Source: a virus (Duplodnaviria; Caudoviricetes). From it: 34,377 nucleotides of DNA. Each line of letters begins with the position of its first letter. Positions within the stretch are counted from its first letter, which is position 1. Under the pieces are notes generated by a model, which worked only from the letters and a program-made list of their open reading frames with translations, did no database searches and was not told the DNA's origin. Location: the IMG/VR virus record IMGVR_UViG_3300037603_000033, positions 1 through 34,377 of that record; one strand, 5' to 3'. A program made the translations under genes and the position numbers. This document shows, piece after piece, positions 24,784 through 34,377 of this stretch.

Positions 24784-25893
24784 ATGGCCGATAGCGATGG
24801 AATGGATAAAGATTTCGTCCATCTGGCAAGGGTGGCACTGTCGGGACGCACTCAAGACGTCCAAACTTACCTGCATCGGATTGCGAAGCGCCGCGATCTG
24901 AATAAGGAATTTTCGGGCGCCTTGATAGAGCTACTTCGTAAAAACCCAACTCGCTCATCTCCCCTGCGCAAGGGCATGGAGAATGCTCTGCCAACCGACA
25001 CGGATTCTCGCTTCCAGCTGTTACGGGTTGAGGAAACACCATTCCTACAAATGGAGCCAGTCTACACAGCGCGGGTCCAGGGCACATTGTCCCGCCTGGT
25101 TGAGGAGCGGCAAAACCTCGGTGCATTGCTGGAAGCCGGACTGGAACCGACACGAACAGTGCTATTCACAGGCCCTCCCGGCGTCGGGAAGACGCTGGGC
25201 GCACGTTGGGTCGCCCGGGAACTTGGCCTCCCACTCATTATCCTCGATCTGTCCGCGGTAATGAGCAGCTATCTCGGACGCACTGGATCAAATTTGAGGC
25301 ATGTGCTGGACTACGCGAAGTCCTTTGATTGTGTTCTTCTGCTTGATGAGCTGGACGCGATCGCAAAACGCCGCGACGATTCCGGAGAGATCGGAGAGCT
25401 TAAGCGCCTAGTCACAGTTTTGCTTCAGCAACTCGACGATTGGCCTTCTTCAGGCCTGCTCATTGCAGCGACCAACCATTCCGATCTACTTGATCCCGCA
25501 GTATGGCGCCGCTTCGAACAACCTGTTGACTTCGCTCTGCCCGAGGAAGCGGGGATACGGGCTTTTCTGGGGGCTCTGTTTGAAGAAGTCGCACCGGATA
25601 TGTCCGCCTGGGTCGACATTCTATCGGTCTCTTTGCTCGGGCGGTCCTATAGTGATATCGAACGAGAAGTCACCCTTGCACGCCGCTCAGCCGCACTAAG
25701 CGGCAAAAATTTGGATCATTACCTTTCTCAGCTCGTCGCGACTGACGAGCACTCGAAACAAGAGCGCATCGAAATCGCAGTCCGGCTGGTCAGAAATGGC
25801 CTAGCAACCCAGCGAAAAGCGCATGAAATCACGGGAGTCGCGCGCGACACGATCCGCACTCATTTAAAAAACGAAGCAGTTTTAGAGGTTTGA
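24784..25893 (+). CDS. ietA: AAA+ ATPase of an IetAS-type ATPase/protease system
   Basis: Walker A GPPGVGKT, SSYLGRTGSNL, Walker B LLLDELD, GELKRLV, AATNH, LDPAVWRRF; C-terminal HTH-like TQRKAHEITGVARDTIR; directly upstream of an S8 peptidase. Confidence 0.88.
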   Translation: MADSDGMDKDFVHLARVALSGRTQDVQTYLHRIAKRRDLNKEFSGALIELLRKNPTRSSPLRKGMENALPTDTDSRFQLLRVEETPFLQMEPVYTARVQGTLSRLVEERQNLGALLEAGLEPTRTVLFTGPPGVGKTLGARWVARELGLPLIILDLSAVMSSYLGRTGSNLRHVLDYAKSFDCVLLLDELDAIAKRRDDSGEIGELKRLVTVLLQQLDDWPSSGLLIAATNHSDLLDPAVWRRFEQPVDFALPEEAGIRAFLGALFEEVAPDMSAWVDILSVSLLGRSYSDIEREVTLARRSAALSGKNLDHYLSQLVATDEHSKQERIEIAVRLVRNGLATQRKAHEITGVARDTIRTHLKNEAVLEV

Positions 25894-25903
25894 ACCGGCA
25901 GCT

Positions 25904-28120
25904 ATGAGCAAGCAAAATTTTCTTTTAGGCCGGGGTGAACGCCTTACAGACGATATCGTCATCAAAGGTGGTGGAGCCCCTAAGGATCCCCCTTACACAT
26001 TCAGCGAGGCTCGCGGCAGGCTTTTGCCAATGGTCAAAGAGGCGTCATCTCGCATTGATGAACTTCCTCAAGCGGCTTGCCCGGGTGATGAGGCAGTCAT
26101 CTCGCTAACGCTAAACCCGGAATACATTGCAAAATCCTACTTTCCACATGAACTCATGCGGGATGTGGGCATTGAAGTGATTGGTAGCCGCCCCAAAAAA
26201 ACAATCCCAGCAAAACGATCACGGGGCAGGGAACCGGAAGCGGCCGTAACGACCGAACTATTCGCAAGAGGCCCCAGATCCGCTATCCGATCATGGAGCC
26301 AACAACTTCCGGATTGGCGCGCGAATAGAGGAAGCGCAAAGGCTCTCGTTTCTATCGAAGAGGTCCTAGCACCAGCTCCGCACGCAAAAATCAAAGGGGC
26401 ACTTCCCCAACAAGGGCGAATGGCGTTGGAAACAGTACTGCATGCGAACGAACTAGAACGAGGCATGCTTAAAGCGTTCGTAGAATACCTTGAAAGCGAA
26501 GAAATCGAAGTGGACCTCGGCCGACGCTTCTTCGCCAAAGGTTTGTGCTTCCTCGAACTTGATGCGCCAGCGGAACGAGCAAATGATATAGCACTCTTTA
26601 CGGGTGTTCGAACTTTGAGGCAAATGCCCGGTTTGAGAATTCTACGGCCGACCATTCGTTCGGCAGGAATTCCAACTACCGACCTGGAACTACCCTCCGA
26701 AGGACCCGTGTCAGAAGATGTCCGGGTGGCGATCTTTGACGGAGGCATTCCGGAGAACCACCCTTTGACCCAATGGGCGATACCCCATGAACTTCCAGGA
26801 ATGCTCCCAGCAACAGCCGATGACCTGTCACACGGCGTTGGTGTGACATCAGCGGCCTTGTTTGGACACATCAACACCAAAGAGCCTTTACCGCGTCCCT
26901 ATGCAAATATCGACCATTACCGAGTTTTGGATGAAGAGCCGGGGCAAAACCCACACGAGCTCTACGAAATCCTTGAAAGGATTGAAGGCGTGCTGTCGAG
27001 CCAGGAGTATGATTTCATCAACCTGAGTCTCGGCCCCTGCCTGCCCATAGAGGACGATGACGTGCACGCTTGGACCGCCGTTCTGGATGACCGCCTGTCA
27101 CGAGTATCGACATTGGCAATGATTGCCGTCGGGAACGATGGGGAGGGGGATTCCATACTAGGCTTGGACCGTGTTCAGGTTCCCTCCGACTGCGTCAACG
27201 CTTTGGCAATCGGCGCCTGCGATTCGCCGGGAAAGGATTGGCAGCGCGCGCCCTACAGCTCAAAGGGACCGGGGCGCAGTCCAGGCCTAGTGAAGCCCGA
27301 TCTGGTCGATTTCGGAGGCGAGTTCAGCCGACCCTTCGTAGTTGTAGCACCCGATGCGACACCCTCGCTCACTACGACTGGAGGCACGTCCTTCGCCACA
27401 CCAAGCGTCTTGCGGTTGGGCACCGGCATTCGCGCCCATTTCGGAAGCAACCTGAACCATCTCGCCATTCGTACTCTCCTTGTGCATACATGCGAGGAAG
27501 GTGACCAGGATCACAAAGAAATCGGTTGGGGGCGTGTTGCGCGCAGCTTGAACGACGTCATCCTTTGTGACGACGACACTTTTCGGGTTGTGTACCAGGG
27601 CGAAATTTCGCCTGCAAAATATATCCGCGCAGCAATCCCTGTTCCGTCAGCGCAGATGAGCGGCATGGTCTCCATCAAGGCCACGCTCTGCTACAAAACC
27701 CAGACAGACCCGCACCACCCCGGAAACTATACCCAAGCCGGGTTGGAAGTGACCTTCCGCCCCAACGACACAAAGTTTTCGCGCGACAAACAGGTACATC
27801 CGGATTCTGACAGCTTCTTTGGATCAACTTTACCGGGCGCGACGGAGGATGAATTAAGACGCGACGCCTGGAAGTGGGAAAACTGCCTTCATGCGGTCAA
27901 ACGTAAACGCGGCAGCTCGCTGATCAACCCTTGCTTCGACATCCACTACAACGCCCGACTTGAAGGACGCAACTTCGCTCCTCCTGAAAACCTGAGCTAC
28001 GCGATGGTAGTTACTGTACAAGCCAAGCGTGTCGCTGACCTCTACGATCAGGTCGTACGTAAGTATGCCACACAAATCGAGCCGCTTCGGCCGATTTTGG
28101 AAGTGCCGATCCGCACCTGA
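25904..28120 (+). CDS. ietS: S8 (subtilisin-like) serine peptidase of an IetAS-type system
   Basis: Triad D (VAIFDGG), H (SHGVGVTS), S (GGTSFATP); INLSLGP, AVGNDG, VKPDLVDFGG; no signal peptide. Confidence 0.88.
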   Translation: MSKQNFLLGRGERLTDDIVIKGGGAPKDPPYTFSEARGRLLPMVKEASSRIDELPQAACPGDEAVISLTLNPEYIAKSYFPHELMRDVGIEVIGSRPKKTIPAKRSRGREPEAAVTTELFARGPRSAIRSWSQQLPDWRANRGSAKALVSIEEVLAPAPHAKIKGALPQQGRMALETVLHANELERGMLKAFVEYLESEEIEVDLGRRFFAKGLCFLELDAPAERANDIALFTGVRTLRQMPGLRILRPTIRSAGIPTTDLELPSEGPVSEDVRVAIFDGGIPENHPLTQWAIPHELPGMLPATADDLSHGVGVTSAALFGHINTKEPLPRPYANIDHYRVLDEEPGQNPHELYEILERIEGVLSSQEYDFINLSLGPCLPIEDDDVHAWTAVLDDRLSRVSTLAMIAVGNDGEGDSILGLDRVQVPSDCVNALAIGACDSPGKDWQRAPYSSKGPGRSPGLVKPDLVDFGGEFSRPFVVVAPDATPSLTTTGGTSFATPSVLRLGTGIRAHFGSNLNHLAIRTLLVHTCEEGDQDHKEIGWGRVARSLNDVILCDDDTFRVVYQGEISPAKYIRAAIPVPSAQMSGMVSIKATLCYKTQTDPHHPGNYTQAGLEVTFRPNDTKFSRDKQVHPDSDSFFGSTLPGATEDELRRDAWKWENCLHAVKRKRGSSLINPCFDIHYNARLEGRNFAPPENLSYAMVVTVQAKRVADLYDQVVRKYATQIEPLRPILEVPIRT

Positions 28121-29406: not shown

Positions 29407-30441
29407 TCACATGCCCAGCGCTTCTTTGTACATGTCGAGCACTGCCTCTTCCTCGGCGATGTCGTTTTGATCACGCTTGCGCAGTGCGATGATCTTGCGC
29501 ATCACCTTGGTGTCGTATCCCCGCCCTTTGGCTTCAGCCATCACCTCTTTTTGCTGTTCAGCGATGGTCTTTTTCTCTTCATCCAAGCGCTCGAAGCGTT
29601 CGATGAAATGGCGCAGCTCGCTTGCGGTGGCTCGATACGCGGAGCTCGAAGCGCTGTCGAAGTCAGGATCAGCTTTCATCTTGGGCTTCCCGCTCTTCTT
29701 GCGCTGGGCCTCATGCTGCTTCTGCAGCTCTTTGGCGGCAATGTCGTCTGTCGCTGCCGTCAGCATCTGAACGATGGTATCGCGGTCGGCGTCCTCAGGA
29801 ATGGCGGCCTGCAGAGCAATAGCGGCCCGGATGGTCTCAATGGTAGCCACTTCGCGCTTGCCCACGCTGTTCGGTGCAGAGACGATCCCCGCCTCTTCCA
29901 TGCGCTCCACCAGGCGGGCAGCCTTGTTGTAGCCGATGGCAAGTTTGCGCTGGATGAAAGACGTGCTGGCCTTCTGTTCCCTCACCACCACCGCAGCAGC
30001 GCGGAAATAGAGCGCATCGCCTTCGGAATTTAGCTGGCCTTCGGTGGGCGCATCGTCTTGTCCTTGGAAGGCATTCGCGCCGACGCGGACGTGTACCCCC
30101 TCACCAAACGGAATGTGCCCCGGATCGGGTTTCTGAACCGGCTGAACGATTTTCCTGATCATCCCGGTTTTGTCAGAGCTGCGCCGGATCTCTTCCCAGC
30201 GCGCCGCCAGAGCTGCCCAATATGCGTTCACCTCTGCCATGCGGTGCAATTCGCCGCGCAGGCTGGGCACCATGTCGAGCAGCTTTTCGCAACGGCCAAA
30301 ATCGGCTGCGTCGAGCGGATAACTGCCGTCCTGGCTTCCTGCGCCTACTAGATGCGCAGCGATGGCGTGAGCGGACGCCCCGGCGCCCCCTGACTTCACC
30401 CAATCGTTGTAACCTTCTGGTGCCTCGTCGAAATCGAGCAT
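29407..30441 (-). CDS. Multidomain protein: phage N-terminal domain + FtsK gamma domain + GapR (DUF2312) domain
   Basis: aa ~142-198 DALY...KASTSFIQRKLAIGYNKAARLVERMEEAGIVS...GKREV; aa ~272-344 ELRHFIERFERLDEEKK...EAKGRGYDTKVMRKIIALRK...LDMYKEALGM. Confidence 0.9.
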   Translation of the reverse strand: MLDFDEAPEGYNDWVKSGGAGASAHAIAAHLVGAGSQDGSYPLDAADFGRCEKLLDMVPSLRGELHRMAEVNAYWAALAARWEEIRRSSDKTGMIRKIVQPVQKPDPGHIPFGEGVHVRVGANAFQGQDDAPTEGQLNSEGDALYFRAAAVVVREQKASTSFIQRKLAIGYNKAARLVERMEEAGIVSAPNSVGKREVATIETIRAAIALQAAIPEDADRDTIVQMLTAATDDIAAKELQKQHEAQRKKSGKPKMKADPDFDSASSSAYRATASELRHFIERFERLDEEKKTIAEQQKEVMAEAKGRGYDTKVMRKIIALRKRDQNDIAEEEAVLDMYKEALGM

Positions 30442-30736: not shown

Positions 30737-31641
30737 ACGTTGATCCCCGCCGCCTGGCAGTCGGCTGCCGTGACCAGACCCGCCGCGATACACTCGCCCG
30801 CTTGGCTGGGCTTGATGGTCCGCGCCCAAGGCTTGCGCTCGAGGATCTCTTGGGCCCGCGCTTCCAGCACCTTCTGAGGGTCAACGCTCTCGACCGGCGC
30901 TGTGACGTGCTGGCGCCAACGCTTCTCGTCGATCCAGTTCTCGGAATATTTGATGAACCGCGGTTTGTTTCCCGCCTGCTCGGTGGCATAGGCCCGAGCT
31001 CCCGCCAAAATCTCTTTCGGCTCAGCGCCAGCGCCCAGCGCTTCTTTCAGCGATTCCTCGGTCGCCTCTGGGTCGCCCATCCGGGGATAGGCGCCGACGA
31101 ACTCAGCGAAGAAACCATCAAAATCGAAATCTGATTTGTGCGGGGCGGAAGCCGCGCAAGGTTCTTTTACTGGTTCTCTTACAAAGGTTAGTGTCTCATT
31201 TTGAGACATGGTTTTCGCGTTTTTTGAGACATGGTTTTCGCGTTTTTTGAGACACGGAACCGTGTCGCAATTTGAGACATGGCCGCTAGATTTGTTCTCT
31301 TTTTGCCCCCGATTTTTCCGTGTCTCAGTTTGAGACACGGCATTTTCAATGTGTGGGGGGCGGTCGAAGTTGAGGCCCAAGATATAGAAGGTGGAAAGCG
31401 ACTTGCCGGTGCGCGGATCGATGCGCGGAACACGCCGGATCATTTCCAGTTCTTCGAGAGTGTCGAGGTGACGGTTCACTGTGGCGCGGGACATGTTGCA
31501 GTCCGCGGCCAGGGTGGCCTGATCCGGGTCACACCGGAGAGTGTCTTTGTTGTGCCTGTCTGCCAGCTGGATCAGCACCACCCAGGGGGCGGGCTTCAAA
31601 TGCCGCTGATCCAGTGCCCAGCTAACTGCCTTGTGGCTCAT
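30733..31641 (-). CDS. Phage replication initiator (N-terminal winged HTH)
   Basis: MSHKAVSWA...VLIQLADRHN...PDQATLAADCNMSRATVNRHLDTLEELEMIRR; iteron-coded linker; C-terminal F..F...YP...FIKYSENWIDEKRW. Confidence 0.85.
   Translation of the reverse strand: MSHKAVSWALDQRHLKPAPWVVLIQLADRHNKDTLRCDPDQATLAADCNMSRATVNRHLDTLEELEMIRRVPRIDPRTGKSLSTFYILGLNFDRPPHIENAVSQTETRKNRGQKENKSSGHVSNCDTVPCLKKRENHVSKNAKTMSQNETLTFVREPVKEPCAASAPHKSDFDFDGFFAEFVGAYPRMGDPEATEESLKEALGAGAEPKEILAGARAYATEQAGNKPRFIKYSENWIDEKRWRQHVTAPVESVDPQKVLEARAQEILERKPWARTIKPSQAGECIAAGLVTAADCQAAGINV
31191..31340. repeat. Iteron cluster / probable phage replication origin inside the initiator gene
   Basis: TTGAGACA at 31201, 31224, 31247, 31272, 31330; exact 23-bp tandem repeat 31201-31246; palindromes TGTC(T/G)CA-N3-TGAGACA at 31192, 31263, 31321; AT-rich tract 31161-31190. 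Confidence 0.85.
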
Positions 31642-31847
31642 GCTTGGCTCCTGTTGCTCGATTGCTTACGCCCAGCGCGCTGGGCGGCTCCTGCGGGGCC
31701 TGTGCTGCCCTCGGCGGCCGCTATGCGGGCCGTGACGGCATTCAGGCGTTTCATGTTGCGCGCGGTGCTGCGGTGGCCTCTGCGCGCCTTGTGCGCGTCG
31801 GTGAGCAAGCAAAGGCGCTCAACCTTGGCGACGATCAGCTCGGCCAT
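31638..31847 (-). CDS. Hypothetical phage protein (69 aa)
   Basis: GGGAGGG RBS; stop overlaps the initiator start (ATGA). Confidence 0.6.
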   Translation of the reverse strand: MAELIVAKVERLCLLTDAHKARRGHRSTARNMKRLNAVTARIAAAEGSTGPAGAAQRAGRKQSSNRSQA

Positions 31848-32383
31848 GTTGCCCTCCCATAGAACTCGGTGGGGGCGCTGGCGGGCCGATCAAACAGATG
31901 CCAGGCGACATTGTCCTTGCCGGTCTGGTTGGTGCCCTCGATCCAGCACAGGCGCCCTACGGACACGACCTTGCGAAGACGGGACATGTACGGCCGAGCC
32001 TGGGCTGTGTGGATCCAATCAGCATCGAACAACAGCCAGGTCGGCAGCGCGTCCGAAAACTGGACAATCATCTGATGCAGAATGCTACGCGTCCAAGCAG
32101 GGTTGGTGATGATCGCCTCGGCGCCTGTGCCGCGGATCTCGTCTGGCGTGGCCGTCAAGGCATCAGATCGAAAGATCCATTCATCCTGCGGTCTGATATC
32201 GGTAGCGACAACGCAATGGTGACCCTGGGCCATCAGCTCAAGCGCCATATCTCCGCGGCCTGCGCAAGGCTCCCAGAACTTCACGCGCGGCGGCAGGTGT
32301 CGCAGCAATGGCGGATAGGCCCGCTTGTCGAAGGTCAGGTATGCGTCGTTCTTCCGACGCTGGAAAGAGCTGCGCTTTCCCAT
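31835..32383 (-). CDS. Small orphan SAM-dependent DNA methyltransferase (amino-MTase type)
   Basis: Motif I-like FWEPCAGRGD and motif IV-like IITNPAW; start MGKRSSF at 32383. Confidence 0.8.
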   Translation of the reverse strand: MGKRSSFQRRKNDAYLTFDKRAYPPLLRHLPPRVKFWEPCAGRGDMALELMAQGHHCVVATDIRPQDEWIFRSDALTATPDEIRGTGAEAIITNPAWTRSILHQMIVQFSDALPTWLLFDADWIHTAQARPYMSRLRKVVSVGRLCWIEGTNQTGKDNVAWHLFDRPASAPTEFYGRATWPS

Positions 32384-32577
32384 CAGCCCGCCCTCTGGTG
32401 AATTGTAGGCAGTGACGGGGGAACCCGCCTCTGGCACCTGCCTGCACCCCGGTGGCCGCACTTACCGGATACAAATGACCCAGACAGGGCGCGCCAGGTC
32501 CGGTTGTCAGTGCTGCCTTGTTGTCCCGCTGTCCCGTGATGCCCAGCGGCAGGTTCACCCGGCGCTTGTCCGGTGAT

Positions 32578-32645
32578 GCGCGGCAGGGCATATGCCCCGC
32601 CGCGCGCATTCATCCCGCCCTTGGGAGGAGGACTGGCAGGATGAA
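32578..32645 (-). ncRNA. Candidate structured RNA: cuckoo-type hairpin (CCUCCUCCC loop) plus adjacent GC-rich hairpin
   Basis: UUCAUCCUGCC-agu CCUCCUCCC aag-GGCGGGAUGAA (11-bp stem), then GCGCGGCGGGGC-AUAU-GCCCUGCCGCGC; both stems need G-U pairs that exist only on the minus strand. Confidence 0.55.
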
Positions 32646-32681
32646 AACTATGGCGTCGCATCCATTCGGGACAACCGCCAG

Positions 32682-32709
32682 TAGACAGCATGTTTACCGC
32701 GTCTATAGT
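32682..32709 (+). promoter_or_regulatory. Sigma70-like promoter for the antisense three-gene cassette
   Basis: TAGACA-N16-TATAGT about 60 nt upstream of the AAGGAG RBS. Confidence 0.6.
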
Positions 32710-32785
32710 CTGGTTGCGGGCCGCGCCTCGCACGCGCGACCCGCTACACCCCTTCCTTCGCACACAAGAAAGGAGCGCATCTGAG

Positions 32786-32890
32786 ATGCTTGAAGAAAGA
32801 AGCCTGCCGTCTGCGGCCGGAACCGAAAAACGCGGCTGGGGCCCCGGCCAACCGAAGCCACCAAAAGAAGAAGATTCAGAGGACGACTGA
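32786..32890 (+). CDS. 34-aa peptide with one KRGWGPGQP motif
   Basis: AAAGGAG RBS; MLEERSLPSAAGTEKRGWGPGQPKPPKEEDSEDD; stop 2 nt before the next ATG; motif shared with the 33473 ORF. Confidence 0.7.
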   Translation: MLEERSLPSAAGTEKRGWGPGQPKPPKEEDSEDD

Positions 32891-32892
32891 AA

Positions 32893-33471
32893 ATGGAACA
32901 CGAAGCCCAGAACTTTGAATTCAACGCCCTGCGTAATGCACTCTACCACACCGCCCGACGCAGGACCTTCGAGAGCTGGGCACGGTGGCTCAACTTCTTC
33001 GTGGTCCTTCTGGGCGCCGCGACGATCTCCGACCTGCTCACTCCATACGGAATTCGAACCGTGCATCTGGGTGCCGCAACTGCGGTGATCGGCGCTTTGC
33101 AGTTGACGTTTGATTTCGGCGGACGCGCCCGAGTGCATCAAGTCTTGCAGCGCGACTTCTATAAAGCTCTGGCTGATTTTCAGGCCATTGAGGAACCCGC
33201 CGCCGCGGACATAGCCGCAGCTAAGGCAGCGCTCTCTGTAACAATGGCAGATGAACCGCCGGTGATGCGAGCAATAGATACCAAGGCATATAACGATGCT
33301 CTGGCTGCCATGGGTCACTATCCCAAGGATCAGCGCATGCACATTCCCGTCTGGCACCTGCCTTTGAAGAACTTTTGGAGCTTCGATGGCTGGGACTACC
33401 AAAAGCTCTGTGAGCTCAAACAGAAACGCGCACTGGCTCTCACCCGGCGCTCCCAAAAGGAAAAAAGCTGA
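32893..33471 (+). CDS. Two-TM membrane protein, SLATT-like
   Basis: Helix with YH..RRR, TM1 WLNFFVVLLGAATI, TM2 LGAATAVIGALQLTFDF, then RARVH..L...Y and helical tail with DEPP. Confidence 0.75.
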   Translation: MEHEAQNFEFNALRNALYHTARRRTFESWARWLNFFVVLLGAATISDLLTPYGIRTVHLGAATAVIGALQLTFDFGGRARVHQVLQRDFYKALADFQAIEEPAAADIAAAKAALSVTMADEPPVMRAIDTKAYNDALAAMGHYPKDQRMHIPVWHLPLKNFWSFDGWDYQKLCELKQKRALALTRRSQKEKS

Positions 33472-33472
33472 A

Positions 33473-33727
33473 ATGAACTTCCCGTTTACCCATGCCTCAG
33501 ATGGAGACCTGGAAAAAAAAGGCTGGGGCCCCGGCCAACCACAAAATCCGAAGCCGTCGGACGGCGGGAATCCCAAGACCGCTGCATTGGCTCTTACCGC
33601 TTTGGGCAAGGGGCCAATCAAGGAAGGTTGGGGACCCGCACAACCACAACCCACCACGCCAAGTGACGATGGCAACCCAAAGGTCAATTGCGCGCGCGAC
33701 CACGTCTCGCGCCAAGTGACGGCGTGA
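33473..33727 (+). CDS. 84-aa low-complexity protein with two 21-aa repeats KxGWGPxQPQxxxPSDxGNPK
   Basis: ATG 1 nt after the SLATT-like stop, AAGGA upstream; repeats conserved in amino acids while differing at synonymous sites. Confidence 0.7.
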   Translation: MNFPFTHASDGDLEKKGWGPGQPQNPKPSDGGNPKTAALALTALGKGPIKEGWGPAQPQPTTPSDDGNPKVNCARDHVSRQVTA

Positions 33728-33776
33728 TGGTGGCGCCGCTCGCACCCAGCGCCCTGCCGCTGATCCTGGGGGCCCG

Positions 33777-34100
33777 TCACGCCGCCCGCTCCAACGCCTG
33801 CCCAAAGAACTCAGGCGCGCCGGGGTCGGTAAGCATGACCAGCAGCGCGATATGGCTTGCGGGGGCGGTCACCGCCCCCCACCAGTTCAGCGCGGTCTGA
33901 AAGCTGACATCGCAGAACAGCGCGACCTCGCGCGGGCTGCGGAACCGGGCGCGGAAATAGGCCGACCACAGATCAGGAGCGTTGACCTTCAGCGCATAGG
34001 GGTCAAACTGATTTGACCAAGATTTTTGGCCAGCGCCCGCCGCACTCTGCGGGCATGGCACATCATTGTTCACAATCAAGGTCAAACGGGGGCGGCTCAT
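33777..34100 (-). CDS. CII-like HTH regulator
   Basis: HTH-like SPREVALFCDVSFQTALNWWGAVTAP; directly downstream of the Cro-like gene (ATGA overlap). Confidence 0.65.
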   Translation of the reverse strand: MSRPRLTLIVNNDVPCPQSAAGAGQKSWSNQFDPYALKVNAPDLWSAYFRARFRSPREVALFCDVSFQTALNWWGAVTAPASHIALLVMLTDPGAPEFFGQALERAA

Positions 34101-34333
34101 GCGGCTTCCTTTCCACTAGCGTCGGGATGACCTTTGAAAAGATGCTCAGGGACCTCGATTCCCCTCCTGTCGCAGTATTCGCGAACTGTCCAAAACCAGT
34201 GGGCCGGGAACAGGCCTACACGTTTTGCGCGTGTGACGAGCTGAACCGAAAACCCTGTCTCCTTTTGAAACTGGGCGCGCTCAGCCACTTCGAGGAATTC
34301 AGCAACTGTCTTGGGTTTGTTCTCTTCGCTCAT
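34097..34333 (-). CDS. Cro-like small DNA-binding regulator
   Basis: 78 aa, first gene of the early operon; HTH-like RAQFQKETGFSVQLVTRAKRVGLFPAHWF. Confidence 0.65.
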   Translation of the reverse strand: MSEENKPKTVAEFLEVAERAQFQKETGFSVQLVTRAKRVGLFPAHWFWTVREYCDRRGIEVPEHLFKGHPDASGKEAA

Positions 34334-34343
34334 GCGCACAGTA

Positions 34344-34377
34344 ACTACGCATTCTGTTTAGTTTGTAAATACGCAAA
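34344..34377. promoter_or_regulatory. Lysis/lysogeny switch region: operator-like palindrome and early promoter
   Basis: ACTACGCA-TTC-TGTTTAGT imperfect palindrome at 34344-34362; second ATACGCA half-site at the window edge; minus-strand TTTACA -35-like hexamer. Confidence 0.5.

Follow-up and report, generated by a model that had tools for sequence, protein, structure and literature searches.

The sieB gene of phage P22 lies antisense in the leftward early operon. The sieB/esc/sas system comprises an exclusion gene expressed from the prophage, a cis-antisense RNA that affects translation of this gene, and a further product which bypasses exclusion (PMC12197685; PMC7067206). SLATT proteins are described as ligand-controlled effectors in CBASS, Thoeris and DRT10 (PMC11381338; 10.1101/2024.12.27.630466; 10.64898/2026.04.29.721553; 10.1101/2025.10.16.682844; 10.64898/2025.12.03.692087). 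For DRT10, it has been proposed that a repeat ligand neutralises the oligomeric SLATT protein (10.1101/2025.10.16.682844; 10.64898/2026.04.29.721553). How SLATT effectors are held shut, and how they open, is described there as an open question (10.64898/2026.04.29.721553).

The window analysed here is a whole virus record of 34,377 nucleotides. Its gene content is that of a temperate tailed phage, with annotated integrase, terminase, portal, capsid, contractile-tail and replication initiator genes. Amid its minus-strand early genes sits a plus-strand cassette (Table 1), described in an earlier note as a self-promoted unit, with its own RBS, of three ORFs (34, 192 and 84 aa). All of its coordinates and ORF sizes were confirmed, as were the three occurrences of a repeated motif (one in ORF1, two in ORF3) and the 20 identical bp of copies 1 and 2 (32834-32853 and 33521-33540). 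The promoter-like site is the sole match of its kind in 31500-34377, where 0.5 would be expected. Contig X1, possibly from the same sample, spans the cassette without change, and other contigs matching parts of it held no informative variant.

Table 1. Features of the cassette and of its flanking genes in the window
Feature	Positions	Strand	Basis or remark
Methylase-like early gene	31835-32461	-	Flanks the cassette
Sigma-70-like promoter, TAGACA-16-TATAGT	32682-32709	+	Promoter scan
Antisense hairpin B	32716-32744	-	Fold, covariation, covariance model match
Antisense hairpin A	32745-32779	-	Fold, covariation
ORF1, 34-aa low-complexity peptide	32786-32890	+	Conserved partner gene; one motif (GWGPGQP, 32834-32854)
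SLATT-like 2-TM protein, 192 aa	32893-33471	+	Hydrophobic at residues ~30-54 and ~57-77
ORF3, 84-aa second peptide gene	33473-33727	+	Clade-specific; motif units 33521-33541 and 33626-33646
Two small early ORFs	33777-34339	-	Flank the cassette

Two further features of the window were recorded. An AAA ATPase and S8 peptidase pair (24784-28120, plus strand) matches the PADLOC IetA/IetS models at E 1e-80 and 6e-42, with scores below the NCBIfam equivalog cut-offs, and makes up another cassette, probably anti-phage in function, antisense to the lytic genes. The early operon also encodes a fusion of an FtsK-gamma and a GapR-like DNA-binding domain (29407-30441, minus strand).

By analogy, sieB/esc/sas is the closest described system in logic, as the cassette would likewise combine a prophage exclusion gene, cis-antisense RNA on translation and a second product. 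Esc is a product of the sieB gene itself, whereas here the candidate inhibitor is a separate repeat-motif peptide ORF in another frame. The effector is SLATT-like, and no SieB family was named in the family matches of the window. DRT10 (UG17) shares a SLATT effector, an upstream structured RNA and repeat units; the cassette differs in having no adjacent reverse transcriptase, a repeat that is a peptide, and an RNA that folds from the other strand and is used by further cargo genes as well. Type I CBASS-SLATT, Thoeris type VII (ThsH) and Shaseng share a SLATT 2-TM effector predicted to be a ligand-controlled oligomer, but the cassette has neither the adjacent CD-NTase of CBASS nor the adjacent TIR protein of the other two. 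It thus lacks the defining features of CBASS, DRT10 and Thoeris. CD-NTase, RT and TIR domains were found neither in the 111 window ORFs of at least 100 aa nor in 23 annotated neighbour-cluster representatives, and the window held no signal-making enzyme.

A small, coupled upstream partner gene is also a feature of type II toxin-antitoxin systems, and in type III systems the repeated antitoxin units lie in the ToxI RNA. Unlike both types, the cassette has repeated peptide motifs, a membrane protein as effector and no apparent DNA-binding domain.

The SLATT-like protein and its upstream peptide

The 2-TM protein has 135 homologs at E<=0.001 in a word-index search and 2021 representatives in a profile search. 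Its closest named relatives are from Roseobacter-group bacteria. The SLATT-like fold proposed in the earlier note is supported by two adjacent TM helices and an all-helical AlphaFold2 model (pLDDT 96.8) nearest to annotated SLATT proteins. The top BFVD rows with a named domain were SLATT proteins (probability 1.0, TM 0.51-0.59, E 3e-3 or weaker), and a SLATT_5 cluster of the Atlas reached TM 0.59. The hydropathy peaks are moderate (1.6 and 1.3). Scores of the window protein lie below curated cut-offs (SLATT_4 20.5 bits against 55; SLATT_1 14.8 against 41), and its Pfam search (as P0001) gave no match. Matches among 120 relatives were all weak (SLATT_1 9, SLATT_4 3, 8xMP 31), as were those of PADLOC 2TM models to only a few of 133 relatives. 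A few homologs are named SLATT by UniRef or NCBI. Fold and sequence searches of the PDB gave no clear match and no solved structure.

None of the known defence models matches the window's 2-TM protein. This would suit a role at the membrane that does not kill the cell, for instance in lysogenic conversion or in superinfection exclusion at the step of DNA entry, the peptide then serving as an assembly factor, and so would the exchangeable accessory slot seen when loci L202 and L205 are compared. Characterised SLATT proteins are effectors of defence systems, and a non-lethal role is considered very unlikely.

For the comparison of loci, 110 were fetched and the window added; removal of exact duplicates and of loci with less than 200 nt upstream left 86, in which near-duplicates were retained. 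A motif-bearing peptide ORF ending beside the SLATT start was found in 71 of the 86 by the pattern G[PVITAL][RGA]QP, which was set after inspecting the loci. The association of motif peptide and SLATT gene drawn from the window thus recurs in its homologs, with 1-3 motif copies per peptide ORF. A similar pattern gave 166 matches on the sense strand of the 300 nt upstream, none on the antisense strand and none within the SLATT gene, and the far-flank background was 0.3-0.6 per 10 kb. No conserved co-oriented partner cluster was found across the 86 loci from the 23 annotated representatives; the flanking-ORF clusters comprised phage repressor, CII-like, Ner-like, ParB-like, Mu transposase and integrase genes.

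A looser pattern located a peptide ORF in 73 of the 86 loci, with start codons picked automatically and in some cases wrongly. These peptides have a median of 55 aa and 20% Pro, with a Lys within the last three residues in 67 of the 73 and a hydrophobic segment in none. One, two and three motif copies are present in 22, 27 and 24 loci, 9-27 aa apart. The peptide stop lies -4 to +14 nt from the SLATT start in 71 of the 73. Such tight stop-start coupling and the Pro-rich ends are consistent with ORF1 being a ribosome-stalling leader which tunes SLATT translation in response to EF-P or translation stress, and the motif loosely resembles the RAGP/RAPP arrest motifs. Against this, an arrest peptide has a fixed motif place, whereas the spacing here varies with no fixed distance to the stop, and distal tandem genes retain the motif, as do downstream genes (window and L052), where action as a leader is impossible. 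A stalling role is judged distinctly unlikely.

Among the 143 distinct motif instances, all Gly and Pro codons are in use, as are both boxes of Arg codons (CGN and AGR). ORF1 differs from that of L001 by five synonymous and no non-synonymous changes in 14 codons, and from that of L052 by five and one in 14. The two units of ORF3 have 7 identical, 7 synonymous and 5 non-synonymous codons (pS 0.79, pN 0.19 over 19 codons, in a stretch picked because it aligns). The view that selection acts on the peptide and not on the DNA is borne out by this use of all synonymous codons and predominance of synonymous changes. A DNA or RNA element, namely a minus-strand terminator with incidental peptides, is suggested by the terminator-like appearance of copies 1 and 2 on that strand, copy 2 with a U8 tail. 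The two copies fold no better than shuffles (z +0.28 and +0.89), and copy 3 and the 143 homologous instances conserve residues rather than bases; this reading is already contradicted and is hardly credible.

The motif core had been given as KxGWGP. This did not hold across the family, in which the conserved form is G[PV]RQP and GWGP(G/A)QP is an Arg-less variant of the window's clade. In the six frames of the window GWGP.QP occurs three times, against a mean of 0.01 (maximum 1) in 100 simulated windows, for a pattern chosen after being seen. The window, L001 and L052 form one clade with GWGP[G/S]QP (SH-aLRT 97 in a quick tree). The conserved motif positions are G, R/G, Q and P; as the Trp is confined to the clade, W>A is not the mutant to centre on. 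The type of motif goes with the clade of the SLATT protein, and GPRQP is common to Mu-like and lambda-like phages. The most conserved polar SLATT residues include many basic ones. Residue 97 of the SLATT protein is acidic in 65 of 65 RQP-motif loci and Gln in 12 of 13 window-clade proteins, the three sampled loci of which have an Arg-less upstream motif. This pattern, which rests on one or two clade changes, hints at co-adaptation of SLATT and peptide. A complex prediction with four SLATT copies and ORF1 scored 0.01, speaking neither way on binding.

Motif position -2 is Ser or Gly in 113 of the 143 instances, and -3 is often R, K or N. These positions would suit a pro-activator, from which a foreign phage protease, cutting after [E/Q/I]-[K/R/N]-[S/G]-x, frees G-P-R-Q-P ends that open SLATT, while antisense silencing protects the resident phage. 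EK[R/K]G contexts, which recur in the peptides of distant SLATT relatives, are also in its favour, and silencing at induction creates no tension for an activator and suits it better than an inhibitor. The upstream context is loose, with GPGPRQP and SVGPRQP common, and no protease is linked. The peptide-first order and the extra peptide genes suggest a needed excess, which is inhibitor-like. Activation by cleavage is considered unlikely.

Two motif-bearing ORFs are present in 9 of the 86 loci (7 in tandem upstream, 2 downstream), as counted by manual reading of 12 rows, three of which were judged to be chance. The downstream gene is restricted to the window (ORF3) and L052, in which the downstream copy retains the Arg. 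L001, the closest relative, has none, and a homolog search of ORF3 returned only ORF3 itself. Of the proposed flanking of SLATT by two motif ORFs, the upstream peptide is conserved, and the downstream copy is a clade-specific addition. The conserved partner of SLATT is, on this comparison, the upstream peptide. As the extra peptide genes are unable to act as leaders, they point to action in trans.

Pro/Lys-rich peptides whose motifs differ from this one lie upstream of more distant SLATT relatives, among them those of Burkholderia phages BcepMu and phiE255 and Pseudomonas phage TC7. Such a peptide was read in 8 of 16 newly fetched distant loci, and the automatic picker gave no candidate in 4. 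BcepMu gp19 (L124, about 2300-2995) and phiE255 gp49 (L126, 1817-2522) are distant SLATT members, with the upstream peptide annotated in phiE255 (gp48) and unannotated in BcepMu. The peptide profile matched no longer proteins, and a single-sequence scan of viral sequences gave no match. The DNA pattern of the window motif had two matches in viral contigs, namely the phage of L052 and one chance match. A mixed alignment of peptide and SLATT was dropped as mis-aligned.

Gene structure varies at several loci. Some homolog predictions extend the SLATT frame through the peptide gene. In P0124 (JGI, one contig), a two-motif peptide is fused in-frame to a SLATT with substitutions at conserved sites, through either natural deletion or assembly error; the tail of its AlphaFold2 model has a pLDDT of 52-72. 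Three in-clade loci (L015, L030 and L042) have an open SLATT frame with no motif peptide. In L042 (3909-4549) the leader is joined directly to SLATT, the peptide is gone and the conserved basic N-terminal stretch is altered, with conserved basic residues lost. Repeat-like insertions, several in number, occur in both genes of its sister L045 (3579-4650). The idea that SLATT decays once the peptide is lost was set aside, the signal being weak after leave-one-out; L042 has 8 deviations, equal to the maximum of the peptide-bearing group.

The antisense twin-hairpin leader

Missed in the earlier note, whose overall reading is partly supported, was an antisense twin-hairpin leader (32716-32779) 5′ of the peptide gene. 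On the minus strand, the 80 nt ahead of the peptide start are predicted to form two hairpins side by side. Hairpin A has 14 bp and a 7-nt loop, and its 5′ arm is the complement of the Shine-Dalgarno (SD) sequence AAGGAG (32770-32775). Hairpin B, with 11 bp in the window, 14 bp in most homologs and a loop of 6-7 nt, covers the point at which sense transcription is predicted to begin, at a distance of 3-4 nt from a conserved extended -10. This element (TGnTAnnnT) is enriched immediately before the leader in 58 aligned loci.

The leader alignment contains 49 of the 73 leaders; 24 were excluded for doubtful starts, poor folds or near-duplication, so it represents a selected set. Antisense energy was lower than sense in all 49 (mean z -5.9 for antisense, -3.1 for sense). 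There are 26 pairs in the consensus, with 94% of cells pairing and compensatory changes in 24 of the 26, far above shuffled and slid controls, and by our own tallies its antisense structure holds 218 G.U against 10 A.C cells. A selected fold of the sense strand was rejected, having 9 consensus pairs and 33 A.C against 5 G.U cells. For the window leader, the antisense energy is -44.8 kcal/mol (z -4.8) and the sense energy -26.8 (z -1.5).

The covariance model matches the window leader, a training sequence, at 41.8 bits. It gave E<1e-6 upstream in 65 of the 86 loci, 49 of these being training rows, and weak matches before distant SLATT genes such as those of L081 and L115. A search of 16 distant Pseudomonadota loci found nothing convincing, and in 151 family genomes there were three strong matches, the rest being mostly chance-like.

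FinP, Sar and Sok are stem-loops with loops of 5-7 nt, complementary to a 5′ leader and RBS. In these RNAs G.U on one strand is a mismatch on the other, as in the cassette leader. The cassette leader differs in that an Rfam search gave no match over it and no conserved -10/-35 was seen on the minus strand in the first 60 nt of the peptide ORF. By structure only, an antisense element over the RBS of a leader ORF is shared with type I (hok/sok-like) toxin-antitoxin systems, the toxins of which are under about 60 aa with one TM, as against 192 aa and 2 TM here. A classical terminator was rejected as there is no U-tract. In 44 of 48 informative SLATT loci, from Mu-like as well as lambda-like phages, the cassette is flanked by early genes that run on the other strand. 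Given these opposite-strand genes and no conserved antisense promoter, the twin hairpins most likely form within, or are processed from, the phage early transcript. The leader may instead act in antitermination or in processing, as a signal.

The leader is not specific for the SLATT cassette. Two pattern scans, with patterns derived from SLATT loci, yielded 54 viral loci with duplicates included, and 28 of these score above 35 bits. The 28 leaders precede peptide plus SLATT (14), a peptide on a cut contig (1) and other small genes of unknown family (13). Unrelated small genes of 79-151 aa follow the leader in L157, L162, L168, L169, L172, L179, L187, L189, L190, L202, L129 and L045:5910; they matched no PHROGs or Pfam family and are candidate new prophage accessory or defence genes. 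L202 and L205 have neighbouring genes in common and differ in cargo. In the isolated Pelagibaca phage vB_PeaS-P1 (L230), two leader copies (1196-1277 and 1997-2079) each precede a different hypothetical gene antisense to the early operon. As the leader precedes unrelated accessory genes, it marks an accessory-gene slot antisense in early operons.

Two side observations concern leader-like sequences. The minus strand of the window at 32541-32652 is a structured non-coding stretch with a CCUCCUCCC motif, and has weak matches to Rfam ar14 (E 0.045) and to the twin-hairpin model (E 3e-4). Its plus strand has a strong SD and an ATG at 32641, opening a 47-codon frame that ends just before ORF1. Similar DNA lies upstream in L052 and downstream in L001, and the stretch is possibly the remnant leader of a lost cargo gene. 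At L037 (2792-3601), a leader present in duplicate and a Pro/Lys peptide of another kind, which lacks the RQP motif, are convergent to an unrelated 196-aa predicted membrane protein (phrog_12870), and peptides similar to this one may serve other TM families.

The arrangement in L037 and the short, linear nature of the motif would suit an indirect bait or decoy, in which the peptide targets a host or phage protein and SLATT senses its loss or capture. The motif varies more with the clade of the SLATT protein than with the type of phage, and this explanation is judged quite unlikely.

Proposed mechanism and its meaning

The preferred reading, held tentatively at somewhat short of an even chance, is a lysogen-expressed defence or exclusion cassette in which the repeat-motif peptide holds the SLATT oligomer in check until some factor of a foreign phage takes the peptide away. 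The model is inferred in each of its parts (binding, inhibitory direction, toxicity, expression, trigger, defence and silencing). The cassette would be expressed, and the peptide presumably translated, in the lysogen, where the G-P/V-R-Q-P repeats of the predicted disordered peptide would bind and restrain SLATT. A protease or competitor from the foreign phage would remove the peptide, and freed SLATT, a predicted pore, would damage the membrane and cause abortive infection. At induction of the resident phage, the twin hairpin of its early transcript would pair with the complementary sense leader, covering the SD, and so silence the cassette.

A multivalent peptide which is the only conserved partner, and which sometimes comes from a second gene, fits a ligand acting in trans, and the gene order and added dose favour an inhibitor. 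Against an inhibitor, the peptide itself is basic and the conserved polar SLATT residues include many basic ones, as in nucleotide-sensing SLATTs. Moreover, the three peptide-less loci keep an open SLATT frame, and L042 also keeps its leader. Were the peptide simply to decay, silencing at induction would put the phage at risk, and an antitoxin that is labile and nothing more is hard to reconcile with a cassette which the early transcript of the same phage would silence.

A literature search found no description of the cassette, motif or leader, and supplementary defence-screen tables could hold a member. From sequence, the cassette is an undescribed architecture on a known effector fold, with well-supported conservation and a predicted function. 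More broadly, it is conceivable, at a chance well below one half, that it belongs to a Pseudomonadota-wide, enzyme-free defence in which a repeat peptide with clade-specific motifs replaces the nucleotide or cDNA ligand, and to which alphaproteobacterial prophages add an antisense twin-hairpin switch by which the early transcript of the phage itself shuts off accessory genes.

If the peptide gates SLATT, a predicted anti-phage pore would be under a kind of control that is new, and the cassette, with two genes and a candidate ligand of five residues, would offer the simplest model for the question of SLATT gating. As the peptide genes are tiny and often unannotated, 2-TM genes which apparently stand alone may be two-part systems. 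The leader itself is a search handle, and has led to 13 more loci in the early operons of phages, with accessory genes whose function is unknown.
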